A DNA stretch of 64,000 bases from Heptranchias perlo (taxonomy: Eukaryota), in contig NW_027139442.1 of NCBI RefSeq assembly GCF_035084215.1, forward strand, positions 5,766,001-5,830,000. Reading direction: 5' to 3'. Below are positions 18,505 to 59,628 of the stretch, in pieces. Within the stretch, counting starts at the first letter, position 1; each line of letters begins with the position of its first letter. The position numbers and the translations under genes are program-made. Under the pieces are notes generated by a model, which was not told the origin of the DNA, searched no databases, and saw only the letters and a program-made list of their open reading frames with translations.

Positions 18505-18920
18505 GAGGACAGGAGAGCACTGAACTCAGAGAAGAGAGAGCAAGGTGAGTTAAGATAGGGTTTGACGTCAGCCAGGATGACAAGTTGTTCAGTGCAGAGA
18601 CAGAGGGGCAAAACCAGTAATTTATTCTGGGTGAGAAACTTGGCGTGGGGCATGTGTGGGAGGTAGAGAACAAGGATTTTATAGGAGATGTGAGAGGGGT
18701 GGAACAAAGTGAGGTGCTTAAAGGAGGAGAAGGTGCCGGACGACAATGTGGAGAGAACAAGGTGTGATTCGGTGAAGGGCAACACCGCCACCACAGCGGT
18801 TTGGGCGGGGCAGGTGGTGAAAATTACAACCACAAGGGGGGCTTTAGTAAGGAGGAAGGTGTCATCGCTCATCAACCACGTTATCGTTAAAGCCATGATT
18901 TCGATGCAATCCTTTTAATG
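18505..18920 (-). mobile_element. L2-type LINE endonuclease fragment
   Basis: IMALTITWL, GGGVAL and SFKHLTLFHPSHISYKILVLY resemble APE-domain motifs. Confidence 0.7.
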
Positions 18921-18954
18921 AGGCCATGGATGGTCCGGTCAGAGCCCAGTACAG

Positions 18955-19397
18955 TTTAATTAGGACCTTTTCTGACTTGTATTCCATTGTTTTGGGATGT
19001 GTAGTTCAAGATTCTGTTGGATTTATTGATCGCTGCTCTGCACTGGTTAGACAGGTTGAGCGCCGGGTCTGCTAAGAATTTAAGTCCATTTAAGAAGATA
19101 AGAAAATAAAAGAGAGGAGCAGGAGTAGGCCATAGGGCCTCTCGAGCCTGCTCCGCCATTCAATCAGATCGTGGCTGACTTTCGACCTCAACTCCACTTT
19201 CCCGCCCCATCCCCATATCCCTTGATGACCCTACTGTTCAAAAATCTATCTATCGCAGCCTTGAATATAACAACGACGCAGCATCCTCAACCCTCTGAGA
19301 TAGAGAATGCCAAAGATTCACAACCCTCTGACTGAAGAAATTCATCCTCATCTCAGTCTTAAATGGCCGATCCCTTATCCTGCGACAATGGCCCCTC
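18955..19397 (-). mobile_element. CR1 fragments, including a 3' UTR
   Basis: Typical CR1 3' UTR and tail at 19090-19200. Confidence 0.8.
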
Positions 19398-19564
19398 ATA
19401 CGAGTGTTAACTTCGTCCTTAGACATTTCATCTTTCAGTCCATGATCTCCTTACATTTACAGCCCGAGGTTAGGAGTCCAATGATAGATGGTTGGAGGAG
19501 ATGGTTAGTAGTGGGGAAGAGAGAGGATAATTAGCTCAGTCCGTGTATTTGTAATGAACTGATA

Positions 19565-19674
19565 TTATATATTGTTTAACCTACCTCTCTTCCAGAAGCA
19601 CACAACCAACAGAGCAAGGATGAGCATCAGAACCACAGCAGAGCCAACACGAGCCTCCAGCGCAACGGATTCAT
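19565..19674 (-). CDS. Ig receptor transmembrane exon: DESVALEARVGSAVVLMLILALLVVCFWKR, then either a donor after 19585 or read-through GRLNNI*
   Basis: tttag acceptor at 19675-19676, phase 1; ~19-residue hydrophobic run preceded by Arg and followed by KR; G|gtagg donor at 19584. Confidence 0.82.
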
Positions 19675-22600
19675 CTAAATGATATAAAGGGGCAAAGTAG
19701 AACCAAGTTAGCCCAAAGATTATTCACGAAATAAATAATTTGCTATTTAACAAAGAACATAATAGGCAGCGGATGTTTCATAATGCGGAGTGAATTTCTG
19801 AAGGGGAAAAAATGGTTGAGATGAAGGTGTGTTTCCAACACTCGCCGGAGGCGTAATTGGACTTGGCGGGGGAAGCGAAACTGGTGCAGTCCCTTTTGCC
19901 GCCAGTTATACCGCACGCCAAATATCCAGTTGAGTGGAAGTGGCTCCTCTCGTCACTTTTACCCCTATAAATGTCCCACATTAATGCAAGGCTCCAAAAT
20001 CAGGGAATCGGTAATGAGCTCGGCAATGGTTCGACATCCGGGTGAGAAACGGGGACACGGATCAAAGCTCAATTGTCATTAGCCCATTAATTAAAAGCCT
20101 CATATATTCATTGATTCCTTCGTTGGATAATAATAGTGGACCTGGGACCAGGTGAATTTTTAATTCTTCCCAGCTCACGGTAAAAATATCACACCGGCAG
20201 TGTGGAAATTAATCAATTTAATTCTGTTAACTCGAGAATCAGCATTGGGTCTAACCTGCGCATGTGCGGAGAGGATTGATGCGGTGACGTTTCAGGAGTG
20301 GATCTTGGTCAGAACTCACCTGTTCTCTGCACAGAGGCTGACCGATTATTACAGCATTTGATTGTTTTTATCGTGTTTTGCTGACTAGGTTAAATTAGTT
20401 CTTGTTAAAGACCGTAGCGTGGATGTTATTTTCTCAGCTTCACCGGGGGGCAACCCTGGACTGTTCGCGGATTGGTAAGGAACGACAGGACAAACCGAGC
20501 GAATTTAACTTCTCATCAGAATTTGAAAAATTAAATCATTCAACGTTTTATGCTGTAGTTTTTTCCTCAGTAACACGATAAATGGCGAACATTTAATGAA
20601 ATAAGCGTTACAATGCTTTTTGATATAATTTCCACGCCACTTTTACGCCACACTGGATCAGGCCTAAAATGGAAAATAAACACATTTTACTGGTGTCGGA
20701 TGAACACAAGTTAACAAAGCACTGGGGTTTATTTCCAGCGGAATAGAATCGGAAAGCAGATTTTTTTGTTAAACTGGTATAGAACCTTGGTTCGACCACA
20801 TTTAGAATACTGTGTACAGTTCTGGCCTCCAGAATACATAAAAGTATAGAAGCACTGTCGAAAGTGGGAAGAAGATTTAGGAGGATGTCACCAAAACTGA
20901 GAGGGTACAACTATCAGGAAAGACTGAACAGGCCGGGTCTCTTTTCTCGAGAAAAGAGCTGATCTGATGGAGGTTTTAAAATTATGAAGGGGTTCGATAA
21001 GGTCGATAAGAAGTTTGTACTTGTGCGGAGTCCAAAGCTCGGGGACGTAAATACAATATAGCCACAAATAAACCCAATAAGGAATTCAGGAGAGACATCT
21101 TTACCCTGATCGTGGTTAGAATGCGCATCTCGCTGCCACATGGAGTGAGTGAGGCAAATAGCATAACTGCATTTAAGGGCAAGCTAGATGAGTACACGAA
21201 GGAGAAAGGAAAAGAAGGACATGTTTATAGCGTGAGATGAAGTAACGTGGAAAGAGGCTCGTGTGGAGCATAAAGACCGCCATCGATCCGATGGGCTGAA
21301 TGTCCATTTTGTGAGCTGTAAAAACACCCATGATCCATTTGAATGGCGGAATATGCTTGAGGGAATGGATGGCTTAATTCCATGTTAGTAAAATTCGATA
21401 GAATTCGAAGTGATACAGTCACCGTGCCAATCTCACTCACCTCTTACAGTTATGTGTACAGGGTCACTCAGAGCTGACGTTTGCAGCTTTCTCTTCCCAT
21501 TTGCTTCATACAAACATATGTAGTTTCCTCCATCGTCATGATCTATATTCGTGAGCGTGAAGGTGACATAATTTCGCCGTGCAGCAGCAAACTGGATATC
21601 CGAGTAATTCGCTTCCCCATGTCTGTATAAGTAAAATGTGGAGCAAGGAAGCTTCTGGCGATTTGTGCAGTTAAAGATGACTTTTCCACCTTTCACAGCA
21701 ATACTAGAATCCACTGATATATTTGGTTTGGGTAGGTCTGTAATTCGAATGGAACAAGTAGTGACAATCGATTGAAATGCAATGAGCAAACGTATTTTTG
21801 TGAGCCAAACTGTAATGCACCAGGTACAGCAGTCCTGAATAATTTCACCGGATTCCGCACATTGCTGCCAATCGTGCAGCTGAACAATTAATGGTTCAAC
21901 CAACTTTATAGCATTTTGGTTTACTTTATATTCAGCATCCGAGCGCCCGTGCAGTCATCTCAGGCACGATACAGTAGACGAAAAGGGAGAGCAGTGGGCG
22001 AGGGAAATGCACGATTGGAAAACAGACAACTTGTATTCACTGGAGATTTGTGTGTGTGAAAATTATAGAAAGAAAAAGATGGCCTAAAATCTCGAGGGTA
22101 TTTTGAAATCCTTCCCTTCACTGGCTTACACTTTGTGATATGTAATTGTACCACTCACACTGGAATTATCACAGACACAATTTAAAAGGCCTATTGAACA
22201 TTGCTATTCGTAATTAAATATTTTGTACCCTGTGAAACATTTATCAGAAAGTGCGATTTCTTATCATAACTTCCTGTTATGTATCTACTTTAGTTCATGG
22301 AACAGCGTTTACTCGACATTTCTCTTCATTATAAGTTCAGAAGTGTGGCTGTTCGCTAATGATTGCACAGTGTTCAGCTCCATTCGCAAATCATCAGATA
22401 ATGAAGAAGTCCATATCCGCATGCTGCAAGACCCGGCCAACATCAGACTTCGGCTGATAAGTGGAAAGTAACATTCGCACCACACAAGTGCCAATCAAAG
22501 ACCATCTCCAACAAGCGAAAGTCTAACCACCCCTTTGACATTCAATGACATTACCATCGCCGAATCCCCGACCATCAACATCTGAGAGGTCGCCATTGAT

Positions 22601-25600
22601 CGGAAACTCAACTGGACCAACCACATAAATGGTGTGATTATCAGAGTAGATTCGACGCTGGGTATTCTGCAGTAAGTGGCTCACCTCTTGATTCCCCAAA
22701 GCCTATCTGCTGTAAGGAAATATTGGTTAAGGTATTATGGGGAACCAGGCGCGAAAGGGTTAATTAGTCAAGGCTTTAACTGAAACTACTGCACCATAAC
22801 ATAGATTGCTTTTAAATTAACGTACTGCAGCTGCAGGCACTAAAAATTATCAAAACCATGTCATTTCAAACTAAGGGAGGGACATAACGGCACCCCCACT
22901 CCTTCAGGCTTACTGGAATGCTGAAGTTAACTGGTTACCTTAAAGGCCTATAGAGGGATTTATCAACTGCAGGGATTGAGGAACATTGTGTTAAAGATAA
23001 GGGGCTGGAGGGTGCACAAGACGCAATCCTTTCTTGGCAATTACGTGTTGTCCATACGATTTGGTAAATTAAAGGGAGTATTTTGGAAAAGACCTGATTG
23101 GGTGTATGTTCCCGCAGTTCCGTTTATTGGAGTATAATTGTTAGTCTGGGCTTTTGTTAAGTGCAGGGAACAGTATAGAAAGTACAAGGCGGGAAACGAG
23201 AACGAGAGTACGTGAAGGAACGAACAGGGAACGAGGTCGCAGCTTCTACCCAAAGGACAACGGGGTAATACAATTCTCAATTGTGTTTTGTAAACGACTG
23301 CTGAAACACTGTGATGTATTGATTCTTGCTTGTACTCAGTAAAGTCACATGGCTATTAACCATTATGGTGTCAGTCTCGAAGAATTGAGCAGAGAGTCAA
23401 ATTGACTACACTGCCACCAACAAGGTGGCAGGAGTGTGATGGAATTCTCTTCACTTGCCTGGGCGGGTACAGCTGCAAATAGACTCAAGAAGCTCGACAG
23501 CACAACGCGGACCGCTTGATCGGCAGTCCATTCACTACCTCAACCATCCACTCCCTGCATCACTGGTGCACCGTGGCTGCAGTATTTACTCTCTACAGGA
23601 TAGACTGCAGCACCTTCCTAACTCGCGACCTCCACCATCAGTCAAGACAAGTGTCGAATCGCTATGGGAACACCATCACCTCCAAGTTCCCCTCCAAGTC
23701 AAACACCCTTCCGAACTCCCTCCCTAACAGCACTGCGGGAATACCTTGTCAACATGGACTGCATGGTTCAAGAAAAAGGCTCACCACCACCTTGTCAATG
23801 GCTACTATAAATGGGCAATAAACGCCGGCGTTTCAAGCGATACACACATCCTGAAGAATGATCAAAAATTCAAGTCCACAAGCCTGTAACTCATTCATCT
23901 GAAATGTGAATCCCCATGGATTAGCAGAGATTTTCACTCTTTTAAATCACGTTTGCAACTCAGATAAATTAGCGGAATTGTGAATGTGGGACAAACGCAT
24001 TTTCCTTGTTCCATTCATATCCTGGTGTGAATTTTTTGGGCTGTATCCTTTCTTTGGGACTGGAATCCCTGATTTCTTTTGTTTCTTATTTCCGTTTCAG
24101 TCAGCTCATGAAATTGTGAATTCCCCTTTTGTAGAATCTCAGTTCCCAATGCAAACACTTCCCTTCAACACAATCGGTATTGAGTTACCAACCTTCCACG
24201 ACATGTGGCAATTCACAGCTCTTGGCCTTATTTTTCTTTCCATTAATTTTACCACAGACTCGGTTTATCTAATGGGCTCTGCATTAGCAAGTTATATATT
24301 ATCTGTTCCCCTGGCATCTCTCTCGCTACTGAGTTCGAAGGCGGTGGGTATAAGGTCAACTCCAAGACGTTAGAACCTAAGCCACGTTGAATATTGATTG
24401 TAGTGGAAGGCCAGGCTGCAGTGTGAAAGTAAACGTTAAATCGAGGCACTACCTGCCCGTTTAGCAGAACAGGAAAGAACCGGTGGGCAACATTTAGCCC
24501 TCAACCAATACGGTCAAAATGAATGAACCGATTATTCTCTCATTGCTGTTCGTGTTAACTGGGTACCGCGTTTACAACAGTGACCACACTTCACCGGCTG
24601 TGACATGCTTTGGCACATTTTGAAGAAGCAAAAGCCGCTATCTGATTATCTTTCTATTTACACTGCTGATTTCTGGTTAGAAAATACTTGGGGTTACCTA
24701 AATATCTGCATGAAATGCTTCGGCCGTCAAATTTCGTCTGAAATTTGCCCTGGTTGGTATCGTAAGATGGGCGATAACTATCGGCAGCCAATTTTACACT
24801 CCGCCCAATTTTGCACTCCGCCCAATTTTCATTTCAAGTCACTTCAATGCTGGATAATAGGGGACAATTTCGACTCCCGTATAAGGCTAAGTTCACCGCA
24901 CACATAGATATAAATTAACATCGGAGTTACAGTGAATGCTGATCTCTATAAATGAGACTAATCCCACCCTACACTTGGATATATATTAGCATAGAGGTTA
25001 CAGTGAGTGCTGGTCTCCAGTAACGATACTATTCTCACCCTACACTTGGATCTATATTAACATTGGGGTGACAGTGAATGCTGGTCTCTATTAATGGGAC
25101 TAATCTCACCCTACACTTGGATATATATTAGCATAGGGGTTACAGTGAGTGCGGGTCTCTATTAACGATACTATTCTCACCCTACACTTGGATATATCGT
25201 AACATCGGTGTTACAGTGACTGCTATAAATGCTTTCACCGGCAGTAAACGGTCAGCCTATGTGTTCAGGTCCGTTTGTTACAGAGACCATGAGCTGAGCG
25301 CCGAGACGTTGAACATGCAACACTGAGATATTTATACAAAGATTATTTTTTGAAAATATAAAGAGCGTTGAACAGATATATTAACAATCTCTCCTCTCCT
25401 TCCCTCACCTGCTATAGTGACTGTCACAGCCTCACTCAGCGGGGACCAGAATCGCCTTCTTTTGACGACGGTTCTATATTTGCATTGGTACCGCCCTCCT
25501 TGGTTTGAACTGGTAACCGTGAATGTTCCAATGTTGCCCTTGGTGAAGAATTGGCGAGATGTCAGCAGTTGATTATTTCTGTAAAAGTAGATTTTACCGC

Positions 25601-28600
25601 GATATTCTCTGTTGACGTTGCAGGTAATGGTAACCGTCCCTCCTTTCAAATACACCCCAATCGATTGATCAAGAGACATCCGCGGCCGTGTGATTGGATC
25701 TGTGGTAAAATAGATAGAACCAGCAATGAGAAATTGACCTGTTGATATTTTCGTGCGCGGGAATGTTGGTATCACAGTAACGATTCCGCTATGATCAAGG
25801 GAAATGTTACATCGGGGCCTGGGGTTCCACAAAAGAGTAATTCGCGACTTCATCAGTGGAATGAAATGGATGCGTGACTAAAAAGAAATCAGCTGGGGTT
25901 TCTATTTGTAAAATCACATTTTATCCCAGAAATTGCTCTCTGTGATACAAGCGGAACAAGCGTTGATTTCAATTCCCATTGATGCTGATATAGCAGCATC
26001 TCAAACGCAATTAACAAGAGTACACGCCAACGCTAAACTGTGGGAAGTCACATTTCAAATAAAGCTTGGAAATGTTGGTGGGCTAGAATTTTAATTCTCA
26101 TGTTTCGGTGTGTTTGTTATGCTGCAAAAGTCGGCATTTACTGCCCATCCTTAGGTGCCCTTGAGAAGGTGATCGTCGACCCTCTTCTTGCACCGCTTTA
26201 GCCCGAGTGGCAAAGGTACTCCCTCACTGTTGTTCGATAGTGTGTTCCACGATTTTGAACCAGCAACAATGAAGGAATGGCGATATTTGTCTAAGTCAGG
26301 ATGGTGAGTGACTTGGAAGGCAACGGCAGTGATGGTGTTCCCATGCCCCTGCTGCCCTTCTCGGTGGTGGAAGTCACGGATTTAAGAGGTGCTGCCGAAA
26401 TGCAATCAAGTGAGAGATATGGAAAACTACAGCATAACTGATTTGAAGTATTCTGCAAAGCAGTATCACGGTGAAAGTCTCAGCAGGCAGTTTCGGTTAA
26501 CTGTCAGCGAAATTGGTAATATGTCAAGACCAGCCAGTCTGGCGGTACCTCGTGAGGTGACGCTACAGTCGGTGGAGCTAAAAGACTGGCGACGTGCTGT
26601 CATTGTGGCATTAAACATTTCGCCCTGCTAGTTCAGATATGTAAGGCATAAAATTGGAAATCATGACCATAGATGTGTAATAACATCACATCACCTCCAT
26701 TTACACATTAAGGAGGGCGTATGTTGACATTGTGCCTTATCAGGGATTTTGGACCAACGGCTGAAAGGAAGACTCATTTCTGGGATGCAGTTTTTCCTCA
26801 GTACTGAACTAAAGGGGACATGTTAACCGGAACCGCCCAGTGGGAATGGGACGGGATCGAACGGCCGGCCATTTTACACTCTGCCCATTAAAGTTAACGG
26901 AGGGTAAAATCGGGCGAAGTGTAAAACGGGTGGCCGACCCGAACCTGCCCCCTTTGCCGTCTTTGAGAGTTAGTTAAAAATAACCCTCCTTCCCTTCTTG
27001 GGAACTGAGCTCAAGACTTGGTTGAGATTGAAGACACAAAATTCTGCCTTAGGCGGTGACATTGCGTCAATGAAAAAGAACATTCGGCGAAGTGTAACAT
27101 GCTTCTGCATACCCTGGCACCAGTTTTGCGCTACCACTTAAGATGGATTTCATCCCACACTTGGATACAATAACATGGGGGTCAAAGTGACTGCTTCCCT
27201 CTGTTGATGCTTTCACAGGCGGCTAGCCTGTGTGTTCTGGACCCATTGTTACAGAGACCCTGTCAAGGGATGAACTCAGAAACACTCTCTGCCAATAATA
27301 AACACTGTTACATTGAAAGAAGTATATAATTCTGGAAATACCAAGAATGTTGAATAGACTGCCCTAAAATCTTTGTTCCCATTCACTCACCTGTTATAGT
27401 TACCGTTACAGACTCGCTAAGCTGGGATTCTAACCATCTTGTTTTGGCATAGATTCCATACTTGCATTGGTACATCCCTCCTCGGGTTGGACCGGTAACG
27501 GTGAAGGTTACAGTATTGTCCTTTGCGAAGAGCTGACGAGACCACAGCACTTGATTATCTCTGTAAATGTAGATTTGACCACGACATTCTCCGGCCACAG
27601 TGCAGGTTATGGTGACCGTTTCTCCTTCTAAATACACCCCAGTCGGTTGATCAAGTGATATCTCTGGCGGTGTTAGCGGATCTGTGGTAAAATCAATGGA
27701 AATAACAATTCGAAATGGAACTGTGTATTTTCATGTACAGTTCAACATTGGTGACTCAGTAAGGATGGCGGTTTGTTGAAGGGAAGTGTTTGCATAATTT
27801 CTGAGATTCCACAAAAAAAGGGAATTCGCGATTTCCTTTCCTCAATCAGTGGAAGTGCGAAAGTAAAGAAATCAGCTGGTGGTTCTATTTCGAAAATCAG
27901 CGCTTGGCCCAGAAATTGCTCTTTGCGATACGAGCAGAACACGGAAAATGCATTGATTTGAATTCCCCTGTTCTGTTAATTTAGCCGAGCTGCAAACTCG
28001 ATTAGAGACAGTGAATGGAGTAGATTTAGATTTTGTGCGTTAGTGTAAGATGAATGCTAACGGGACGGCATTCAATTTTACATCTCGGCCGATTTGACTG
28101 CAATGGGAATGAAAATCGGGAGTGATGTAAAACAGGATTGATGATTCGCTTTCACCCGTTTTACAATATCGCGCAAAATCAAAATCTCCCCCAATGTATC
28201 CGCTAAGCCGTCGTGATTCGCTCTTAAAATAAAGGAGTTAAGTGTTGGTGGACTCGAAATTAATTTTATATAATTGTTTCCGATGTGGGCGTTTCCGCTG
28301 CCCATCCCGAGTTGCCTTTGTGAAGATAGTGGTGGGTCTTCTTAATGAGTCGCTGCAGCCTGTGTAGTGAGGAGACTCCCACAATGCTGTTTGGGAGAGA
28401 GTCTCAGGATATTGATCCAGCAATAATAATGGAACGGTTATATAAGTCCAAGTCGGGATGTTGCTTGATAACGTTCCTGTGAAGCGATTCGGGACATTAT
28501 TACTCCGTTAAAGGCGGTGTATAAATGCAAGTTTTTGTTATTGTTGTGACGCTACGTTCAGCGCAGTTGAGATCTTGGCGATGTGCCATCATTGTGGCAT

Positions 28601-31600: not shown

Positions 31601-34600
31601 GTTCGCGACGCACTGAGTGAAGAAATTTCTCCTTATCGCTGTTCTAAATGGAATACCCCGTATCCTGAGACTGTGACCCCTGGTTCTGGAATCCACAGCC
31701 ATCGGGAACATCCTCCCGGCGTCTAGTCTGTCTAGTCCTGTCAGAATTTGGTATGTTTCAATGAGATCACCTCTCATTCTTCCAAACTCGAGTGAATACC
31801 GGTCTAGTCGATCCAATCTCTCCTCATACGTCAGTCCTGCCATTCCAGGAATCAATCTGATAAACCTTCGTTGCACTCCCTCCATGGCAAGGACATCCTT
31901 CCTCGGATGAGGAGAACAAAACTGCACACAATACTCCAGATGTGGTCTCACCAAGGCCCTGTATAACTGCAGTAAGACATACCTGCTCCTGCACACAATC
32001 CTCTTGCAATGAAGGCCATCGCCCATTTCGGCCGAATGTCCTTTCTCTATGCTTTACTTTCTATGTAATTCTATGTCGTTCAATATCATTCTATCTAAGT
32101 TGTAAGCTGCCCCTTTTTTGCCTTTACCAGTTATCCAAAATAACAATATTTGTCTCCTTGTGATCTGAGCCCAAGACTTGGCTGGGATGGAATTCACATA
32201 ATTCTGCCTTAGTCGGGTATAAATTGGTCTTGACTGGTAGCGTGAGTTAATTAGAAAGTTAAATCAGGCAGAGTGTAATATGGGCTGCAATCCGCAACCA
32301 CACGGTTTGCACTACAGCCGAAGCCAAATATCACCCTACACTTGGATATAGTAAGAAAGGAGTCAATGAGAATGCTTGTTTCTATTAATGTTTTCGGAGG
32401 CAGTAAACGGTCAGGATGTGTGTTCAGGACCCATTGTTACAGGGATCCTGTCAGGAGCTGAGCTCAAGGACCTTCTCTGTGAGTATTAAACACTATTATA
32501 TCAAAACAATATGAAATTTTGAAAATAACAAGTGTATTGAACAGATATATTAACAATCTCTGTCCCCTTCACTTACGTGCTATAGTGACCGTCACAGCCT
32601 TGCTGAACTGGGATTCCAACCACCTTGTTTTGACAGAGGTTCCATATTTGCATTGGTACCGTCCTCCTTGTTTTTTACTGGTAACCGTCAATATTCCAAC
32701 GTTGTCCTTTGCGAAGAATTGGCGAGAGGACAGCAGTTCATTATTTCTGTAAAAGTAGATTTTATCGCCATATTCTTTGTTCACGGTGCAGGTAATAGCG
32801 ACCGTCTCTCCTTCTAAATATACCCCAGTCGATTGATCAAGAGATATCTCTGGTGGTATCAGCGGATCTGTGGTAAAATCAATGGAAAGAACAGTTAGGA
32901 ATGGATCTGAGGATTTTCATGTACAGTGAAAGGTTGATAACTCAATAACGGTTGCGTTGTGTCGAAGGAATTTGTTTGCATCGAGAATAAAATTCTACCA
33001 AGGGGGAATTCACGATTTCATTCGCGCAATCAGCGAAATTGCGAAAGTAAAAAAAAAAATCGGCGGGATATCTATTTCCAACATCTGGGTTTAGGCCTGA
33101 AATTGCACTCTGGGATACGAGCAAAACAAGGAAAATGTGTTGAATTCAAATTGCAATTTCTGCTGATTTAGCCGAGCTGCAAACCCAATTAAAAAGAACG
33201 AATGGGGTAGATTTTGATTTTGTGCGGTGCTGTAAAGCGGGAGATGGCGAGTCAGAAACCCATTTTACATCTCTCCCCATTTGAACAGTGCAAAGTTGGT
33301 GATGGCGAGTCGGAAGCCCATTTTACACCTCTCCCCATTTCTATAGTGTAAAGCGGTGATGGCGAGTCGGAAGCCCATTTTACATCTCTCCCATTTGTAC
33401 AGTGTAAAGCGGGTAATTACGAGTCGGAAGCCGATTTTACATCTATCCCCATTTGTGCAGTGCACAGCGGGAGATGGCGAGTCAGAAGCACATTTTACAT
33501 CTATCCCCATTTGTGCAGTGTAAAGCGGGAGATGGCGAGTCAGAAGCCCATTTTATATCTCTCCCCATTTGTATGGTGTAAAGCGGGTGATGGCGAGTCG
33601 AAAGCCCATTTTACATCTCTCCCCATTTGTACAGTGTAAAGCGGGTAATTGCGAGTCGGAAGCCCATTTTACATCTCTCCCCATTTGTACAGTGTAAAGC
33701 GGGTAATTGCGAGTCGGAAGCCCATTTTACATCTCTCCCCATTTGTACAGTGTAAAGCGGGTGATGGCGAGTCGGAAGCCCATTTTCCATCTCTCCCATT
33801 TGTACAGTGTAAAACGAGTGATGGCGAGTCGGAAGCCCATTTTCCATCTTTCCCCATTTGTACAGTGTAAAGCGGGTGATGGCGAGTCGGAAGCCCATTT
33901 TACTTCGTTCCCCATGTGTACAGTGTAAAGCGGGTGATGGCGAGGCGGAAGCCCATTTTACATCTCTCCCCATTTGACTTCAATGGAAATAGAAATAGAG
34001 AGTTCTGTCAAACGGGATTGCTGATTGGCTTTCACCCGTTTTACTTTGTCGCACAAAGTCTAGATCGACCCCAATATCTCCGTTAAACCGTGGAGACTCG
34101 CTTTAAAAATAAATGTTAAATGTTGGTGCAATTGAAATTACTTTTAAAAAATCATTCAATGGGATGTGGGCGTTGCTGGAAAGGCCGCAATTTTGTCCAT
34201 CATCGGATGCTCTTGACAAAGTGGTGGTGGGTCTTATTCTTTATATGCAGGCTTCTGAAAAGTGAAGGTGCTCCCACAATGATGTCACGTAGGGAGTTCC
34301 AGGATTTTGACCCAGCGACCATGAAGGGATGATGATATATGTCCAAGTCAGGATGGTGTGAGACTTGGAGCGGGACTCGAGGGTGATGGTGTTCCCACGC
34401 ACATGCTGCACTTGTCCATCTTGTTAGTGCAGGTCGCGGGTTTGGGAGGAGCTGCCGGACAGCAATCCAGTCAGAGACATGGAAAGTCGCAATAGAATTA
34501 AGTTTAAATATTCCGCATTAAGGACTATTTTGAAAATCTCCGCATGCAGATCTAATAGAAAAATGTAAAGCGACAAGGCCAGTCAATCTGAGAGGGTGAC

Positions 34601-37600
34601 GCGACAGTCAGTGGATTTAAAATACTGACGATTTGCTATCATTGTGGCATTAAACTGTTCAGTCTGATAGTTCAGATACATGAGAGATAACACTGGAAAT
34701 CAGGAAGATGGATGAGCATCAATATCACACAGCCTGCAGTTATCTTTTGAAGTTCTTGTGTTCACATCGCTCCTGATCGGGTATCTCGGGCCAACGGCTG
34801 AAAGGAGGACTCATCTCTGGAATGTAGAATTCCCTCAGTAATGAGCTAAAATGGGCAATTTTAACCTGACCTTTCCGGAAGGAACGGCACGATTTCAGTC
34901 GACGGCTGGTATTAAACTCCGCATAAATCTCAGCTCCATTAAAGAAAATGGAGTTTAAAATTGGGCGAACTGTAAATTAGATGGCTGACCGAAGCGGTCC
35001 TTTTACCACCGGGGGGGCCTAAGTAATCAAACCAATTGTTACCTTGGGGTCTGACCTCAAGGTTTGTTTGGGGTTGGAGCAAAAAATTGTGACAATGGGG
35101 TAGAAACCCGTCTTTGGTGTTGGGCTATTCGGGCGGTAGCGTTTCAGCAGCCCAGTGGAAAAAGCAATAGGGTGGAATGTAACACGTGCTGCTGATATAT
35201 TAACATCTATGTTCCTATTCACTTACCTGCTACAGTTAACCAAACAGCCTCACTGGGCTGGGACAGGAATCGTCTTGTTGTGACAGAGGTTCCATATTGG
35301 CATTGGTACAGCCCTCCTTGTTTTGTACTGGTAAGCAGCAATGTACCAATATTGTCCTTTGTGAAGAGTTGACGAGAGGACAGTGGTTGATTTTCTTTGT
35401 AAAAGTAGACTTGACCGCGATACTCTCTTTTCACGGTGCAGGTCATAGTGACCGTCTCTCCTTCTAAATACACTCCAGTCGATTGATCAAAAGTTATCGC
35501 TGGCTTTGTAAGCGGGTCTGTGGTAAAATAAATGGATCGAACAATTAGAAATGGATCTGTGGATTTTCATGTGTAGTGAAAGGTCTGTTACACAATATCG
35601 ATTTTACTGTGTTCAAGGAAATTGGTTGCATCGGGGACGGAGATTCTACAAATGGGGAATTCGCAACGTCATGAGCGAAAACAAATAGAAATGGGAAAGA
35701 AAATAAATTAGCTGGGGTTCTATTTCCAAAATCAGTTTTCGTCCCAGATATTTCTCTCATAAGGTGAGGATAAAGTGATTGAAGTTAAAAACCTGTCCAC
35801 GTGCTGTCATTACCGCATTAAATATTTCGCCCTGATAGTTCAGACATGTCGGGGATAAAATCGGTCTTTGATGGTAGCGTAAAATGGACGGCAATGTAAC
35901 GGCAGCCTGTTCCACACTCCTACTTATATGATAAGGAAAATTGGCCCTGCCTAAAACGTGAGGCCGATTTGCTATGGCCGTTTTTCCGCTACCAGCGAGG
36001 ATGAATTTCACGTATATTTTCAAGGCGTGAGCGGCCATCAAGTAACATCCGATTATCTTAGAGTGATAGGAATTGAAACTTACCCACTACCGTGACCTTC
36101 ACTGTATCACTTCGCTCTGACATCATCTCCCGCTCTGACACTGTATTTTTATATACACAGAAGTAATCTTCTGAACCGGCCCCCAAATGGTTCGTGATGT
36201 CAAAGGTGACAGCGGATTGCGATGACTGGGCTGTGTCCGTTTCGACTGGTGTATTTTGGCCTCTTCTGTACAAATAGAAACTGCTGCCTAAATATGGAGA
36301 CCGTGATTCACAAGTAACCGTGGCCACTTCTCCTGTCACAAATACTTTATCCCGACGGTTAAGAGATAGTGACGGTTTGAGAGGGTAAGCTGTAAACACA
36401 AAAAGGTAACACATTAATGTTAATTACAGGAAAACATACGGGACTAATTATAACCTATCCCGCCGCCTTGAAATGGGTTAGTTCGGGCCGGGCACCCGTT
36501 TTACAGTTCGCACCATCTGTTAGCACAGATTAGAATCGGTCGGGTGTAAAACGATCGATCCACCCGATCCTGTTAGCTTTCGGCCTGGCTGGAAAGGGCA
36601 AAACAGCGTTACGAGACAGCAACTGTACTCATTCCTACATCCGGACTGCAGGTCCAATATTAGAATATAATTCCTTTCCTTCCTACATTCCGGACTGCAG
36701 GTCCAATATTAGAATGTAATTCCTTTCCTTCCTACATTCCGGACTGCAGGTCCAATATTAGAATGTAATTACTTTCCTTCCTACGTTCCGGACTGCAGGT
36801 CCAATATTAGAATGTAATTCCTTTCCTTCCTACATTCTGATCTGCAGGTCCAATATTAGAATGTAATTCCTTTCCTTCCTACATTCCGGACTGCAGGTCC
36901 AATACTAGAATGTAATTCCTTTCCTTCCTACATTCCGGACTGCAGGTCCAATATTAGAATGTAATTCCTTTCCTTCCTACATTCCGGACTGCAGGTCCAA
37001 TATTACAATGTAATTCCTTTCCTTCCTACATTCCGGACTGCAGGTCCAATATTAGAATGTAATTCCTTTCCTTCCTACATTCTGATCTGCAGGTCCAATA
37101 TTAGAATGTAATTCCTTTCCTTCCTACATTCCGGAATGCAGGCCCAATATTAGAATGTATTTCCTTTCCTTCCTACATTCTGAGCTGCAGCTCCAATATT
37201 AGAATGTAATGCCTTTCCTACCGACATTCCGGACTGCAGGTCCAATATTAGAATGTAATTCCTTTCCTTCCTACATTCTGATCTGCAGGTCCAATATTAG
37301 AATGTAATTCCTTTCCTTCCTACATTCCGGACTGCAGGCCCAATATTAGAATGTAATTCCTTTCCTTCCTACATTCTGATCTGCAGCTCCAATATTAGAA
37401 TGTAATGCCTTTCCTTCCTACACTTCGGACGGCAGTTCCAATATTAGAATGTAATCCCTTTCCTTTCTACATTCCGGACTGCAGGTCCAATACTAGAATG
37501 TAATTCCTTTCCTTCCTACTTTCCGGACTGCAGGTCCAATCTCACAATGTAATTCCTTTCCTTCCTACATTCCGGACTGCAGTTCCAATATTAGAATGTA

Positions 37601-40600
37601 ATTCCTTTCCTTTCTACATTCCGGACTGCAGGTCCAATCTTACAATGTAATTCATTTCCTTCCCACATTCCGTACTGCAGGACCAATATTGGAATGTATT
37701 TCCTCTCCTTCCTGCATTCCGGACTGCAAGTCCAATATTAGAATCTAAAACGTTTCCTTCCTACATTCCGGACTGCAGGTCCAATATTGGAGATACCAAA
37801 GTATCTGAAACAAGCACTTAAAGAGGAATAGTTTGAATATTAGAATTTGATATCTTCACGTAAGCGAGAAAAGTCAAACCGTTAACTCCAGTAATGATCT
37901 GGTGGGCAGTCGATGCGCAATTGAGCAATGAGATCAAAAGCCATTCGGTTATATTCCTCTCTCGTAATATTAAACGTTCAATTTTGTTGCAGTGAATAGA
38001 GCGTGTTTTGAAAAATATATGTTAAGAGCTTGAACAGGCATATTAAAAATCTCTGTTCAATATCACTCACCTGCTATCGTTACCGACACAGCCTCGCTGA
38101 GCTGGGACCACAGCCACCTTCTGTTGACGGATCTTCCATATCGGCATTGGTACCGCCCTCCCTGGTTTGTACCTGTTACCGTGAATGTTCCAATGTTGTT
38201 CTTTGTGACGATTTGACTAGAGTACAGAATTTCGCTATTTCCGTAAAAGTAGAATACTTCGCCGAGATAGTCCCTCGTCACGGTGCAGGTAATGGTGACT
38301 GCCTCTCCTTCCAAATACACACCAGTCGATTGATCAAGTGATACCTCTGGCGGTGTTAGCGAATCTGTGGTAAATAAATGGAAAGACCAATTAGAAATCG
38401 ATCTTTGGGTTTACTTGTGCTGTGGAAGTTTAGAAACTCAATATAGATTCTGCTGTTCGATCGGGGACTGAGATGTCAAAAAGGGGAATTCGTGGTCTCA
38501 TCAGGAGAATGATAGAAAAGTGCGAAATAACAAGAAATTAATCAACTGCGTGTGGTATTTCCAAAGTTGAGTTTTAGCTCAGAAATTGCACCGTGGAAAG
38601 CGAGTGGAGTAAGGGGAATGCATTAATCTGCAATTCTTATTTCTGATCATTTATCAGAGGAGCAGACTGGATTATACAACAAATACTTGCATAGCGCCTT
38701 TATCGTAGTAAAACGTCCGACGGTGCTTCACAGGTGCGATACCAAACAAAATTTGATACCGAACAATATGAGGAGATATTGAGGTCGGTGACCAAAAGCT
38801 TGGACAGATAGGTTTTTAGAAGGAGAGAGGGGAAGAGAGGCCGAGAGGTTTCGCGAGGGAATACAGCGGTTGGAGCCCAGGCAGCTGAACGCTTGGGCGC
38901 CAATTGTGGAGCAATGAAAATCATGGATGCGGAAGAGGCCAGAATTGGATGAGCGCAGAGATCTCAGGAGGATTGTGGGGCTGGAGGAGATTACGGAAAT
39001 AGGGAGTGGTGAGGCCATGGAGGGTTTTGAAAACAAGGATGAGAATTTTAAAATCGAAGCGTTGCAGGACCGTAAGCCAATGCAGGTCAGTGAGCACAAG
39101 AGGAGATGGGTTTTCGGGAATTGGTGAGAGTTAAGAGAAGTGCAGCAGAGTTTTTTTCATTTGCTCAATTTCGTGGAGGGTAGAAGATGGGAGACCGGCT
39201 CGGAGAGCACTGGAAAAGTCGAGTCTAGAGGTAAAAAAGGCAAGGATGAGGGTTTCAGCAGCATATAAACCAAGGGTGGAGATGGGCAATGTTAGGTGGA
39301 AGTAGGCACTCTTGGTGATGGAGCGGATATGTGGTCAGAAGCTCATCTTCGCGTCACATCGGACGTCAATTTACATTTTTTCTAATTTGACAGTTTGCAA
39401 TTAATCCACAGTAAGATTTGTAGATGGCGGTGGGCCTGGCGGTGTCTGCCAGCGGTTACTAATATCGGCGTCACCACCATAACGTGCACATGTAATAACT
39501 ATTATCAAGTTAACCAGTTCCTTGAGTTTTGCAACGTATACGGCCGGTTGAACTGAGTGAGTGCTGCATTGTCGGAGGTACCGTCGTCTGCACTCTCAGG
39601 TGGACGTAAAAGATGGCATGATTTCAAAGAAGAGCAGTGGTGTTCTCCCTGGAGTTCTGTCCACTATTTATCCCTCAACCAACAGGAGGGGGAAAAAAGC
39701 ATATTATCTGTCCGTTATCTCATTGGTTTTTGTGGGATCTTCCTATGAGCAAATTAGCTGGCGCGTTTCCTACATTACAGCAGTGACTGCACTTTAAAAT
39801 TACGTCATTGGTTGCTAAGCTCTTTAGGACATCCTGAGGTCGTGAAAGGCGCTATATATTAATGCAAGTCTTTCTTTCTTTTCATTTACCTGTAACAGTT
39901 ATTTCAACAGAGTTGCTGTACTGTGATTGCACCTCTCTTCCTGAAACAGTTTTCGTGTCCCGGCAAGTATACGATCCTTTGTCCCCATCAGAGATCTGGT
40001 CAATGCGGAGCCTGGCCCAACGTCGATCTACATCGGTGCGGGTCAGTAACTCACTGTTTCTGTAGAAAGTGAAAGGGCTACCGCTGTGGAGCCCGAGACT
40101 GGTACATGTTAGAGTGGCCGCATCTCCTTTTAGGTACACACCCGAATGTTGGTCCAGAGCAATTCTTGGAATCACAAGAGAATCTGAAACAAAAGTTAAA
40201 GATTAATTTTACCTAAGCTACACTTTGCCAGACTTGCACGCATTATGTAGGTGAATATTAATACTTATTAATGCTTTGCTGCCACCAGTATTTATAATAA
40301 ATGTAAGCCCACAACTCAGAGTTGAGTTGAAAAGAGTCGGTGCGCAGTGAAACTAACCATCAGTTAGATGAGCCTCATCTTTCTCTCCAATCAAAAATCC
40401 AGCTGCATTCATTGTAGCAGAGGAAAATCCAGGGTTTGGATCATTGTAAATAGGAACAGGAGTCGGCAATTCAGCATTTCGACCCTGCTCCGCCATGCAA
40501 TTGGATCATGGCTGATCTGCACCTCAACCGCATTTGCTCACCTTTAATCCAGCCAGTATTAAAATCTATCCATCTCAGTATTGAAAATTGTATTTGTCCC

Positions 40601-49600: not shown

Positions 49601-52223
49601 ACATTTGGATAAACATAATTTAATAGGTCAAAGTCAGCATGGCTTTACGAAGGGGAAGTCATGTCTGACAAATTTGCTTGAGTTCTTTGAGGACATAACG
49701 TACAGGGTGGATAAAGGGTAACCAGTGGACGTAGTTTATTTAGACTTCGAGAAGGCATTCGATAGGGTGCCACATCAAATATAATTGCTCAAGATAAAGA
49801 ATCACTGGGTTGAGGGTAATATTCTGGCATGGGTGGAGGATTGGTTATCTAACAGGAAGTAGAGAGTTTGGATGAATGATTCATTCTCGGACTGGCAACC
49901 AGTAGCCAGTGGTGTTCCGCAGGGGTCGGTGCTGGGTCCCCAACTCTTTACAACCTACATTAACGATTTGGAGGAGGGGACCGAGTGTAACATATCAAAG
50001 TTTGCAGATGATACAATGATGGGAGGGAAAGTGAAGAGTGAGGAGGACACAAGAAACCTACAGGGGGATATAGACAGGCTGGGTGAGTGGGCGGAGATTT
50101 GGCAGATGCAATACAATATTGGAAAATGTGAGGTTATGCGCTTTGGCAGGAAAAATCAGAGAGCAAGTTATCATCTTAATGTCGAGAAACTGGAAAGTAC
50201 TGCAGTACAACGGGATCTGGGGATCCCAGTGCAAGAAAATCAAAAAGTTAGTATGCAGGTGCAGCAGGTGTTCAAGAAGGCCAACGGAATGTTGGCTTTT
50301 ATTGCTAGGGGGATAGAATATAAAAACAGGGAGGTATTGCTGCAGTTGTATAAGGTATTGGTGAGACCGCACCTGGAATACTGCATACAGTTTTGGTGTC
50401 CATACTTAAGAAAAGATAAACTTGCTCTCGAGGCAGTACAAAGAAGGTTCACTTGGTTAATCCCGGGGATGAGGGGGCGGACATATGAGGAGAGGTTGAG
50501 TAGATTGGGACTCTACTCACTGGAGTTGAGAAGAATGAGAGGCGATCTTATTGAAACATATAAGATTGTGAAGGGGCTTGATCGGGTGGATGCGGTATGG
50601 ATGTTCCCAAGGATGGGTGAAACTAGAGCTAGGGGGCATAATCTTAGAATAAGGGGCTGCTCTTTCAAAACTGAGATGAGGAGAAACTTCTTCACTCAGA
50701 GGGTAGTAGGTCTGTGGAATTTGCTGCCCCAGGAAGCTGTGGAAGCTTCATCATTAAATAAACTTAAAACATAAGTAGGCAGTTTCCTAGAAGTAAAGGG
50801 AATTAGGGGTTACAGGGAGCGGGCAGGAAATTGGACAAGAATTTAGATTTGAGATTAGGATCAGATCAATCATGATCTTATTTAATGACGGAGCAGGCTC
50901 GAGGGGCCGATTGGCCGACTCCTGGTCCTATTTCTTATGTTCTTATGTTCTTATTAAATGGCGCATTGGTCCGGGCCCACCTGGATTGATGTGTGCAGTT
51001 GTTTAATTCACACAAGAGAAAGGATCTGGGTGAACCGTCAGTAACCCCGACTTCTCCCCTGCTGCCTTCGCAATGACAACTGCTGAGATGCAGACTTGCA
51101 TTAGCGCTACCAATAGGACAACACGATCGGCTGCAGCAATCAACTTCATTTACATCAAATCAAAATCAATAATGTAGCAGTGTAGAACATCACCTGTTCG
51201 ATGTCATTATTTTAAAGAGAAATGTCGACACTAACCTTGAGAAACGCTCCGCTCAGTTCCAAAAAACACTAAAAGGAGACACAATGAATCAGTTATTTGA
51301 GTCCGCTCCGTGATGCACTTCAGCTCTGCGCCACTTCTGAAGAAGCGTCCAGTTTTCCTGGACCTGGATCGGGCCGGCGACTAACAGGCAGCCGATGCGA
51401 TCCGACTTGTTTTGAGTCCCCGTCCATGTCCAATTTAAACCCCAGAATGACTTCGATATAACCCAGATGAATTTGGCCTTCTCCAGTAACACTCGCTCAT
51501 AGCGAATCGCAGCCCGTTTTACACCGCGCCGAATGCGCTTTTCCACATCGGGTACATTCCTGCCCTGTGCTGCAAATTTAACATTTGCTTCATAGAAGCG
51601 GTAGTGGAAAATATGTTAAACTTCAATCCTCATGAGTTTAAATCAGGCATTATCAGAAAAAAACTGCGACTTTTATTTTACGAAGGAGGGCACACTTCCT
51701 GGAACACGATGTTAAGGGCGGCACCGATCTGTTTTACCCTTCGGCAGAGCGGATACTTTTCATGTCTGAGCTCAGACACTATTTGTCCGCGAACAATTTG
51801 ACTCGGGGAAGGTGTGAGCACGGACCCTGATCGTGTCCTCAGCGGACATCCACGAATCAATACTTTATAACGGGGCCACGAGTTAACGATCAACAAAGGG
51901 CACTCTCTCTGTTTCTGTCTCCGCCTTATACCGTTCACTTTTCCCGGAAACTAATACCAGTTGCACTCCCTCACCGTTACCCACCGAGAATTGAGCACAA
52001 GCAAGTAACCGCTCCTGTAGCTTTCCAGTCTAAAGGGCTGCACACCAAACTACGAGTTGCTTCTCTCCATTGAGCTGCCGGAGATCGGACAGCGTTGGGC
52101 TCAGTCCCAGTCTCCCGCTTACATCTGTCCACTCCGCTGCACCACAGTCAAGGAATCCTGTACTTTTGGTATAAAATAGTTTCACGACTCACCAAACAGC
52201 AGTAAAACAGAGACAGTATCCAT
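19565..52223 (-). CDS. Multi-exon leukocyte-receptor-complex-like Ig superfamily receptor (split leader, 8 C2-type Ig domains, TM with Arg); ~839 aa if the TM exon is terminal
   Basis: Eleven exons joined by phase-1 GT-AG introns give one open frame (exons listed separately); the 3' end is uncertain. Confidence 0.8.
20690..21385 (+). mobile_element. CR1 3' fragment, degraded
   Basis: LVRPHLEYCVQFW-like sequence and 3' UTR. Confidence 0.8.
21441..21737 (-). CDS. Ig receptor domain D8 (membrane-proximal C2-type Ig)
   Basis: DLPKPNIS...VIFNC...FYLYR...DDGGNYICLY...SALSDPVHITVR; 297 nt, phase 1-1. Confidence 0.92.
22325..23868 (+). mobile_element. Non-LTR LINE 3' fragment interrupted by a solo LTR
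   Basis: LFANDCTVF RT motif; the LINE resumes after 23414 (...NSLPNST..HGL..) and ends in aaaaa near 23865. Confidence 0.75.
22711..23410. mobile_element. Solo LTR, 700 bp
   Basis: TGTA...TACA termini, 4-bp TSD CTGC (22707-22710 and 23411-23414), splits a LINE cleanly; AGTAAA near 23338. Confidence 0.82.
24310..24655 (+). mobile_element. Degraded DeuSINE (SacSINE1/AmnSINE-like)
   Basis: acgttaaatcgagg, ccctcaaccaa and acaacagtgaccacacttc; the last two blocks are shared with the copy at 39555. Confidence 0.55.
24905..25222. repeat. 71-bp tandem repeat, ~4.4 copies with alternating variants
   Basis: cagtga recurs at 24930, 25001, 25072, 25143, 25214. Confidence 0.9.
25409..25699 (-). CDS. 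Ig receptor domain D7
   Basis: DPITRPRMSLDQSIGVYLKGGTVTITC...GGRYQC...SEAVTVTIA; 291 nt, phase 1-1. Confidence 0.92.
27391..27681 (-). CDS. Ig receptor domain D6
   Basis: PLTPPEISLDQPTGVYLEGETVTITC...GGMYQC...SESVTVTIT; 291 nt, phase 1-1. Confidence 0.92.
28015..28195. mobile_element. MITE-like palindromic element
   Basis: Imperfect terminal inverted repeats tggagtagatttagattttgtgcg / cgcgcaaaatcaaaatctccccca plus internal dyad symmetry. Confidence 0.6.
28950..31320 (+). mobile_element. Nested CR1 fragments (younger copy ~29660-30655 inside an older one)
   Basis: KSCLTNLIEFF, WQMKFNAEKCEVIHFGRKN and CR1 3' UTR motifs. Confidence 0.8.
31362..32018 (-). mobile_element. CR1 3' fragment
   Basis: ORF 31577-32026 LQLYRALVRPHLEYCVQF...LWNSL; (catagaaa)n tail. 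Confidence 0.92.
32577..32867 (-). CDS. Ig receptor domain D5
   Basis: DPLIPPEISLDQSTGVYLEGETVAITC...GGRYQC...SKAVTVTIA; 291 nt, phase 1-1. Confidence 0.92.
33228..33978. repeat. 58-bp minisatellite, ~13 copies, inside a MITE-like element (33203-34073)
   Basis: Unit tgtaaagcgggtgatggcgagtcggaagcccattttacatctctccccatttgtacag. Confidence 0.95.
35227..35517 (-). CDS. Ig receptor domain D4
   Basis: DPLTKPAITFDQSTGVYLEGETVTMTC...GGLYQC...SEAVWLTVA; 291 nt, phase 1-1. Confidence 0.92.
36084..36389 (-). CDS. Ig receptor domain D3
   Basis: AYPLKPSLSL...GEVATVTC...FYLYR...EDYFCVY...SERSDTVKVTVV; 306 nt, phase 1-1. Confidence 0.92.
36632..37790. repeat. 49-bp minisatellite, ~24 copies, highly homogeneous
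   Basis: Unit cctacattccggactgcaggtccaatattagaatgtaattcctttcctt; starts at 36682, 36731, 36780. Confidence 0.97.
38071..38364 (-). CDS. Ig receptor domain D2
   Basis: DSLTPPEVSLDQSTGVYLEGEAVTITC...GGRYQC...SEAVSVTIA; 294 nt, phase 1-1. Confidence 0.92.
38675..39365 (-). mobile_element. L2-type LINE 3' end
   Basis: L2-like C-terminus (..LRSLRSSNSGL..AFSCLG..) and ggcgctatgcaagtatttgttgt tail. Confidence 0.8.
39555..39881 (+). mobile_element. DeuSINE (SacSINE1/AmnSINE-like), 3' part
   Basis: Deu-domain-like gagtgctgcattgtcggagg...ctctcaggtggacgtaaaagat...gaagagcag; L2-derived tail gaaaggcgctat..aatgcaagtctttctttc. Confidence 0.78.
39890..40183 (-). CDS. Ig receptor domain D1 (N-terminal)
   Basis: SLVIPRIALDQHSGVYLKGDAATLTC...DKGSYTC...SNSVEITVT; 294 nt, phase 1-1. 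Confidence 0.92.
40445..41285 (-). mobile_element. CR1 3' fragment
   Basis: ORF 40639-41049 LEYCIQFWAPKLRKDILALEGV. Confidence 0.88.
41735..43000 (-). mobile_element. CR1 RT/3' fragment, degraded
   Basis: VDKGMSLDVIF..FDK, KRLLTK and 3' UTR motifs. Confidence 0.85.
43122..43145 (-). CDS. Ig receptor leader mini-exon S2 (24 nt, xGKICTTE)
   Basis: ctcgttttag acceptor and gtaaat donor, phase 1-1; completes the signal peptide MDTVSVLLLFVGKICTTE. Confidence 0.6.
43915..48460 (+). mobile_element. Long degraded CR1 (end of ORF1 esterase, EN, RT, 3' UTR) with nested CR1 insertions at ~44391-44966 (-), ~46590-46710 (-) and ~47745-48215 (-)
   Basis: VGTSDI (GTND-like), AITEIWL, LDLILGNE, EDWRIANV, HRPVSLTS, KSCLTN in order, with many stops. 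Confidence 0.85.
48880..50953 (+). mobile_element. 5'-truncated CR1 with a mostly intact RT region
   Basis: ORFs 49161-49721 and 49872-50774 (KSPGPDG, YRPV.LTS, GVPQGSVLGP, KFADDT); (ttcttatg)n tail. Confidence 0.95.
52193..52223 (-). CDS. Ig receptor leader exon S1 (MDTVSVLLLF)
   Basis: aaaATGG start context, hydrophobic 31-nt coding segment, strong G|gtgagt phase-1 donor. Confidence 0.72.
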
Positions 52224-56121: not shown

Positions 56122-56270
56122 GACTGTGTGTATAACAGGACTGAGTGTCCCAGCACTGACTGTGTGCACAATAGGACTGACAGTCCCAGCACTGACTGTG
56201 TGTTTAAAAAGACTGATGTGCCTTAGCGCTGACAGTGTGTAAAACAGGACTGAGTGTCCCAGCACTGACA
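56122..56270. repeat. 36/38-bp minisatellite, left part
   Basis: Unit tataacaggactgagtgtcccagcactgactgtgtg. Confidence 0.9.
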
Positions 56271-59313: not shown

Positions 59314-59628
59314 AACAGGACTGAGTGTCCCAGCATTGACTGTGTGAGTAACAGGGCTGAGTGCCCCAGCGCTGACAGTGTGTATCACAGGACTGAGTGT
59401 CCCAGCATTGAATGTGTGAGCAACAGGGCTGAGTGCCCCAGCGCTGACAGTATGTATAACAGGACTGAGTGTCCCAGCATTGACTGTGTGAGGAACAGGG
59501 CTGAGTGTTCCAGCGCTGACAGTGTGTATAACAGGACTGAGTGTCGCAGCATTGACTGTGTGAGTAACAGGACTGAGTGTCCCAGCGCTAACAGTGTGTA
59601 TAACAGGAATGCATGTCCCAGCACTGAC
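59311..59628. repeat. 36/38-bp minisatellite, right part
   Basis: Same unit as 56122-56270 with alternating 36- and 38-bp variants. Confidence 0.92.

Follow-up and report, generated by a model that had tools for sequence, protein, structure and literature searches.

A tailless eight-domain receptor gene of Heptranchias perlo, probably a decoy or tether within a shark family of LRC-related paired receptors

In the shark Heptranchias perlo, a stretch of 64,000 nucleotides (assembly GCF_035084215.1, contig NW_027139442.1, positions 5,766,001 to 5,830,000; hereafter the window, whose contig measures 12.4 Mb within an assembly of 3.25 Gb) carries a minus-strand gene predicted to encode a receptor with a split leader, eight immunoglobulin (Ig) domains, a transmembrane (TM) segment and a six-residue read-through tail. 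Judged from sequence, this receptor is somewhat more probably than otherwise tailless and non-signalling, a likely decoy or tethering molecule of the cell surface belonging to a shark paired-receptor family related to the LRC (leukocyte receptor complex). Of greater weight than the gene itself is the family of paired receptors to which it belongs, apparently undescribed in elasmobranchs: the literature searched, which left most subscription journals outside its reach, contained no description, and with relatives public in RefSeq under scattered automatic names, one elsewhere is possible.

The origin of the LRC has been considered unclear, and automatic LRC names in non-mammals misleading (PMC6557307). 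A survey of 2014 reported neither LRC homologs with only C2 domains nor FcR-gamma in sharks and placed the origin of the LRC in bony fish (PMC4016189), and the LRC region has been assigned to a proto-gnathostome microchromosome (PMC8302630).

An intact gene with eight Ig domains

The preliminary description of this DNA had proposed a chain of eleven minus-strand exons with phase-1 GT-AG introns, encoding a leader, eight Ig domains and a TM segment, and the splice sites bear it out: when the 11 exons are joined by script across the 10 introns, one open frame of 842 codons results, with a single stop at 19567-19565. This gene end, also proposed before, holds for the frame and presumes that the mRNA retains the TM exon read through its intact donor (19585/19584). 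Six-frame translation shows eight minus-strand open frames with Ig domains in the interval 40202 to 21436, all eight matching Pfam Ig_2 at E 1e-4 or better; each Ig exon is preceded by AG, followed by GT and divisible by three in length. The leader mini-exon was overlooked by the splice-site scan and was found through the annotated leaders of paralogs. Regarding the motifs described earlier, the LPKP/xxPP N-termini and the F/Y-x-F/L-Y-K/R replacement are present and the C-strand Trp is absent in all eight domains; of the C-terminal motif S..S[DE].V.ITV, the core S..S..V..T is invariant in 8/8 and the acidic position is kept in 6/8.

That these exons might belong to two or more genes had been raised as a danger, and several lines of evidence favour one gene. 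The leader, D3, D8 and TM exons (domains being numbered D1 to D8 from the N-terminus) each occur in 19 genome copies at 92-100% identity, in the same order and spacing. The same eight Ig domains in the same order, with the same TM type, are found in a sawshark protein (P0023; 65-77% identity for D1, D2, D3, D7 and D8), and the domain order recurs in manta (P0027, nine Ig) and whale shark (P0192, seven Ig), with partial forms in catshark; all of these proteins are automatic models whose 3' ends look unreliable. Moreover, an intronless fragment on another contig (C34, L145:8098-8483), a processed retrocopy, fuses D3 to D4 exactly at the predicted junction with 81% identity, and the mRNA of a relative therefore once carried that splice. 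It is thus highly probable that the window holds a single intact gene. Its ectodomain, previously called unusually long, is ordinary for this family in elasmobranchs. Of note, relatives of the same kind with 25 and 18 X-type Ig domains (see below) and a TM segment, hence very long receptors, are found in sawfish (P0012) and electric ray (P0013).

Probable loss of the cytoplasmic tail in a 19-copy subfamily

The inhibitory-type paralogs described below possess cytoplasmic tail exons with tyrosine-based inhibitory motifs of immunoreceptors (ITIMs). DNA similarity to them runs through D8, the following intron and the TM exon up to 19425 and resumes at 18911-17438, a stretch that matches sequence past the last coding exon of the paralog and part of which may be repeat DNA. 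By protein and DNA search, no tail exon, and hence no cytoplasmic ITIM exon, was found in the 39.6 kb below the window TM exon, nor was a tail exon found within 10 kb of D8 in any of the 19 copies. In the closest outgroup by D1-D3 architecture, a gene on contig C2 (78% in D3), three tail exons are detectable (c1, c3 and c4, ending SIYTMV); the loss of the tail is therefore the derived state. Read-through leads to a stop six residues past the TM segment in 18 of the 19 copies, and the TM donor site is intact in all of them.

The ectodomains of the copies appear to be under constraint. Eight intact Ig exons are retained in 15/19, three copies have a disabled exon and one lacks D1 in the 20 kb read. 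Among the tailless copies, the ratio of nonsynonymous to synonymous polymorphism (pN/pS) is 0.36 (distinct variants: 75.5 synonymous, 85.5 nonsynonymous; p 4e-10), and arithmetic on the same counts without D2 gives 0.41.

A family of at least 70 genes with two signalling types

The preliminary description proposed a count of paralogs but had foreseen neither the ~70 that exist nor that they come in two signalling types, nor that the window copy lacks its tail. Searching the genome with D8 gave 126 matches among the 150 scored out of 492 candidates, 70 of which are D8-type exons at 63-100%; the family thus comprises at least 70 genes, a figure that may include allelic copies (the haplotype question of contigs C1562 and C1456). 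Contig C1499 had been considered a mere second haplotype of C1275, the contig of the window, which is unsupported: only one of its five copies is >99.5% identical to a C1275 copy.

Tail exons were surveyed in the 10 kb downstream of each of the 70 D8 exons, together with 7 distant hits. No tail exon was seen in 19 genes (group A, which includes the window gene), all four were present in 19, only the first two in 3, and the first in 21, 20 of these also having the third; the remaining exons of those 21 genes lie possibly beyond the 10-kb stretch read. An arginine-containing TM segment characterizes 7 genes, and one gene, on the chromosome-size contig C2, has its tail further off. In the inhibitory-type paralogs the tail motifs read LTYAVL or LTYADL, and STYAVV or TTYAMV, as called with the ITIM consensus. 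RNA contigs of runs X1 and X3 join the TM exon of an ITIM paralog through its tail exons by GT..AG joints, three seen in both runs and a fourth listed for X1 only, with 24-41 letters on the short side and from one sample; being 95-99% alike to the paralog, they possibly stem from a sister copy.

The arginine TM segments read NLIR in three paralogs on C1275 and SPIR in four. The NLIR segments have an upstream HFT and a C-terminal Glu, as has been reported for LRC members that associate with FcR-gamma (PMC6557307; PMC4536121); in one of them, L069, the acceptor is possibly shifted. A PDB search with the NLIR TM segment found no relative. The NxxR motif of activating receptors is thus present at the level of the family; it is not exclusive to the LRC because it occurs also in Xenopus FCRL and SLAM receptors (PMC6557307; PMC2413239). 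As for possible adaptors, 42/42 zeta-family candidates were scored, among which one intact TM exon was identified, on contig C11, with 46 bits for CD3 zeta vs 37 bits for FcR-gamma. A second, decayed zeta/FcR-gamma-like TM exon with an early stop (L022, contig C1) may be what is left of another adaptor gene. No separate FcR-gamma was found among the scored candidates, which does not prove its absence.

In the window gene itself, the TM segment is of the inhibitory type with an arginine that results from a single GGT-to-CGT change, shared by four near-identical copies forming a clade (Shimodaira-Hasegawa-like approximate likelihood ratio test, SH-aLRT, 90; site kept in the alignment). An arginine typical of the subfamily was considered and rejected on the count of 4/19. 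The change raises the idea of an incipient activating receptor: with Arg in place of Gly, the window copy would be able to associate with an adaptor of the zeta family, in the way that inhibitory KIRs gave rise to activating ones. The arginine lies 19 residues before the first cytoplasmic Lys, in the same register as in the NLIR paralogs, it arose once, the CD3-zeta-like exon on C11 is intact, and a change from inhibitory to activating type has a precedent (PMC6557307). However, the residue is Gly in 15/19 copies, so that the subfamily expanded without the arginine, its context is LEAR rather than the canonical NxxR, and a single substitution in four young copies is compatible with drift; we therefore regard this possibility as unlikely.

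For the preferred alternative, a decoy or tethering receptor, we propose the following course of events. The ancestor of the subfamily would have had an ITIM tail, as the C2 outgroup still has in part, and a deletion would have removed it before a burst of segmental duplications, leaving the TM exon to be read through to its stop. The protein would reach the leukocyte surface and, through a long rod tipped by D1, bind ligands of the type recognised by the inhibitory members. Such a ligand would more likely be host-derived because the tip domain D1 is well conserved. With neither an ITIM nor a canonical adaptor motif, the receptor would compete for or tether the ligand and so shift the balance between inhibition and activation.

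Relationship to the LRC

Membership in an LRC-like family had been suggested from motifs, and it is now supported by profiles, folds, a tree, and paralogs with ITIM tails and NxxR TM segments. For these comparisons, D3 and D8 were treated as one subtype (X) and D1, D2 and D4-D7 as another set of six (Y-type). A profile of 21 D3/D8-type domains, searched against PDB, placed PIR-B and LILRs in the top six ranks, followed by KIR, FCAR, OSCAR, NKp46 and CHIR-AB1, LRC members making up most of the 60 matches shown; FCRL5 came in seventh, a place that it owes solely to the summed scores of nine domains. Structure prediction, also proposed before, agrees for D8: the ten best Foldseek rows of its model (pLDDT, the predicted local confidence, 93) are without exception LRC-type proteins. 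The D6 model (pLDDT 85) also retrieves LRC proteins first (LAIR1, LILRB1, LAIR1), in a narrow band of E-values shared with nanobodies and PD-1. D1 alone has no clear family match.

In a tree of 54 rows, a clade with 100/100 support unites all eight domains with the amniote LRC rows, IGSF1-like rows included, and leaves outside it the ray-finned FCRL5-like rows and the outgroup; a quick tree of 146 rows agrees on that clade (SH-aLRT 94). The 54 rows derive from 169 extracted domains after near-duplicates and several long rows were dropped, over 97 columns. Among 1.84 billion representatives searched, 5315 were hit at E 0.001; the 30 named among the top 150 come from elasmobranchs, reptiles, marsupials, a monkey (IGSF1), frogs and two teleosts, with one unnamed. 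By profile and fold model, the X domains are LRC-type, and the Y domains probably are as well; we consider it likely that the family is LRC-related in a broad sense, and its direct orthology to the mammalian LRC locus slightly more doubtful than credible.

The traits regarded earlier as characteristic of the LRC are not exclusive to it. The C-strand Trp is, by alignment, missing from FCRL5 domains too, and FcR/FCRL genes likewise have a split leader. The leader mini-exon measures 21 nt in FcR/FCRL genes and 33-36 nt in LRC genes; at 33 nt, that of the window gene differs from the FcR type. Regarding synteny, LRC framework genes (TTYH1, RPS9, CNOT3, NDUFA3, PRPF31) were searched and none was found on C1275, the PRPF31 and RPS9 searches being blank; NDUFA3 was located to a contig of 38 kb, Tweety hits to C25, C26 and a further two contigs, each ~30 kb long, and CNOT3-like sequences to C43 and a contig of 165 kb. 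The comparison is uninformative because the marker genes lie mostly on tiny contigs.

Among known systems, the mammalian LILR/PIR group (with OSCAR, LAIR1, FCAR, NKp46 and KIR) resembles the shark family in having one exon per C2-type Ig domain, ITIM and NxxR members, a clustered and expanded organization, and the closest D3/D8 profile and D8 fold. It differs in that the shark gene has eight domains of three subtypes with ~20-27% identity to solved LRC domains, the window copy has no tail and the shark cluster is interspersed with genes for G protein-coupled receptors (GPCRs). Chicken CHIRs have one or two domains. Their TM-scores are the highest among the listed Foldseek rows (0.78 for D6; 0.80 for D8, level with LILRB4 at 0.81); orthology to the shark genes, or a counterpart there of their IgY binding, would be conjecture. 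CHIRs have massively expanded, with activating and inhibitory types (PMC3601082).

IGSF1 and A1BG (LRC group B), with reptile and marsupial IGSF1-like proteins, share an extended ectodomain in which subtypes are mixed, as has been proposed for the ancestor of group B (PMC6557307), and supply amniote rows that clade with the shark domains; IGSF1 is, however, described as eutherian-specific, so that the name 'IGSF1-like' on shark proteins is no proof of orthology. Teleost LITRs and ray-finned FCRL5-like proteins are likewise paired receptors, polymorphic and with several Ig domains, whose similarity is divided between FcR and LRC, as in the description of LITRs (PMC4810170), whereas the ray-finned rows, which include no named catfish LITR, fall outside the clade holding all eight shark domains. 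Finally, multi-Ig receptors of frog and turtle (P0071, P0065, P0050, P0072), known here from automatic annotation and chosen from our own search hits, score higher with the six Y domains than any other group (55-68 bits) and are their sister in the tree (90/79); they are possibly an unnamed tetrapod branch of the family.

Points to the contrary and alternative explanations

Several observations weigh against the interpretation of the window gene as a decoy or tether of LRC-related descent. On descent, FCRL5, FcgRI and FCRL4 come before LILR when a profile is built from 15 Y-type domains, with weak matches for the single domains, and against group profiles the Y domains reach 34-43 bits with ray-finned FCRL5-like sequences and 28-37 with the amniote LRC; an approximately unbiased (AU) test does not reject a clade of Y and ray-finned FCRL5-like domains (p 0.19), and the tree, with reference rows picked by our own profile search, is without mammalian FcR, FCRL, LILR or KIR. 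The tail may survive in an unrecognised exon, because the TM donor is intact in every copy. As to constraint, near-copies do not yield independent variants, and older constraint could have been brought in by gene conversion. Finally, RNA of the window copy or of any of the 19 was not found, and no protein of the subfamily stood among the hits of the protein searches. Runs X1-X3, read at 80% likeness, gave no exon joint, being swamped by repeats, which says nothing either way on expression; one paralog contig spans exactly the D8 exon.

The want of RNA, together with the three copies bearing a disabled exon, would suit passenger copies, that is, a gene disabled by the tail deletion and multiplied passively within segmental duplications that also bear GPCR genes. 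Indeed, the duplicated units are 95-99.8% identical, including introns and the neighbouring GPCR. The low pN/pS, the eight intact exons with splice sites in most copies and a leader region conserved at 96-100% speak otherwise, and we hold this explanation to be rather unlikely. The intact donor could instead serve a new cytoplasmic tail, recruited from a downstream exon and signalling through it, for example from an acceptor at 17767. This acceptor and the first seven codons behind it are present in 19/19 copies, and the frame contains two tyrosines in 12. The frame is shifted in 6/19 and stopped early in one, neither tyrosine lies within an ITIM or an immunoreceptor tyrosine-based activation motif, and poly(A)-like hexamers occur 540-650 bases past the read-through stop, so that such a tail appears very improbable. 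The candidate exon at 17767 was set aside, its frame not being conserved, and the splice-site scan gave no convincing tail exon.

The leaning of the Y domains, together with the RefSeq automatic name 'Fc receptor-like protein 5' on many relatives and the NxxR segments outside the LRC mentioned above, could mean that the family belongs to the Fc-receptor lineage (FCRL/LITR-related), that its LRC-like look is confined to D3 and D8, and that it may bind shark immunoglobulin. The earlier suggestion to place each domain by profile and phylogeny has in fact given a divided answer, D3 and D8 being closest to the LRC by profile, D8 also by fold, and the Y domains inclining to FCRL5 by profile (six of the eight domains score higher on FCRL5/FcgRI than on LILR) and to the LRC by fold and tree. 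Yet the best single FCRL5 domain gives 24 bits, in a match ending at profile position 74-79 of 96; no Fc receptor is found among the 45 Foldseek rows listed for D6, which CHIR-AB1 heads by TM-score; and all eight domains sit in the amniote LRC clade. We judge this descent quite improbable, a judgement that concerns descent and can overlap with the other explanations.

Features and surroundings of the gene

Table 1. Positions of the exons and the 3' boundary features of the receptor gene, in window coordinates.
Feature	Position	Strand	Remarks
Leader exon 1	52193..52223	-	31 coding nt from ATG, phase-1 donor; 19 genome copies, 96-100% identity, one per gene copy
Leader mini-exon	51236..51268	-	33 nt, flanked by AG/GT; located by similarity to RefSeq paralog leaders
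Ig D1	39890..40183	-	N-terminal subtype of its own; 65-77% identity to the D1 domains of relatives in sawshark, manta, whale shark and catshark
Ig D2	38071..38364	-	repeat type, named Y
Ig D3	36084..36389	-	LRC-like type, named X
Ig D4	35227..35517	-	Y type; D3-D4 junction intronless in C34 retrocopy
Ig D5	32577..32867	-	Y type
Ig D6	27391..27681	-	Y type; structure model pLDDT 85
Ig D7	25409..25699	-	Y type; 16 basic vs 3 acidic residues
Ig D8	21441..21737	-	membrane-proximal X type; structure model pLDDT 93
TM exon	19585..19674	-	inhibitory-paralog type; recent Gly-to-Arg change found in 4/19 copies
Former intron start	19565..19584	-	read through to stop after six residues; inferred protein end
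Break-off interval of DNA similarity to ITIM paralogs	18911..19425	-	four tail exons missing; inferred deletion

Besides the receptor gene, the window contains a single-exon rhodopsin-family GPCR frame on the plus strand (8635-9624; 330 aa stop to stop, Pfam 7tm_1). Similar frames are found in 3/5 flanking stretches read (also L016, L017 and L020), one of them duplicated along with the receptor gene, and presumably resemble shark GPR139-like arrays. An unbroken LINE frame (long interspersed nuclear element; 56269-59223, plus strand, 985 codons) has endonuclease and reverse transcriptase domains, and many broken LINE pieces are scattered in the introns. Minisatellite arrays with periods of 52, 71, 58, 49 and 36 lie at 10045-12156, 24893-25224, 33231-33976, 36632-37788, 56122-56269 and 59312-59628; as a speculation, those between Ig exons could promote exon shuffling.

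Elsewhere in the genome, a divergent family member (L147-L148 on C1562, P0033) has mixed X and Y domains and no TM segment in its model, and is possibly secreted. A second cluster, on a GC-rich contig of 1.24 Mb (C511, L089-L095; proteins P0112 and P0014), is rich in X-type Ig domains and includes hybrid receptors combining SRCR and Ig domains, with arginine TM segments reading EALIRLCL. Of the two clusters, it is possibly this one, not that of the window, which stands closer to the true LRC locus.

Significance and outlook

A broader and tentative proposal, which we would sooner doubt than affirm, is that the last common ancestor of sharks and humans was already equipped with a complete LRC-type paired system, in which ITIM receptors stood beside decoys and activating receptors of the NxxR kind. 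The shark family would then be a CHIR-like expansion, signalling through CD3 zeta as no separate FcR-gamma was found, and the window gene would show a switch from inhibitory to activating type caught midway, a tail deletion being followed by a TM arginine in the four youngest copies, the window gene among them.

If these readings are true, a family of ~70 genes with both signalling types, the NxxR motif and a long-form gene conserved in sharks and rays would move the origin of the LRC to the ancestor of jawed vertebrates. The tailless subfamily of 19 copies would represent recent birth-and-death evolution with a change of signalling type, and whether shark MHC class I, IgM, IgNAR or collagen is bound could be put to a direct test. 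The family would moreover provide candidate natural killer and myeloid receptors in the oldest lineage that possesses MHC and antibodies.

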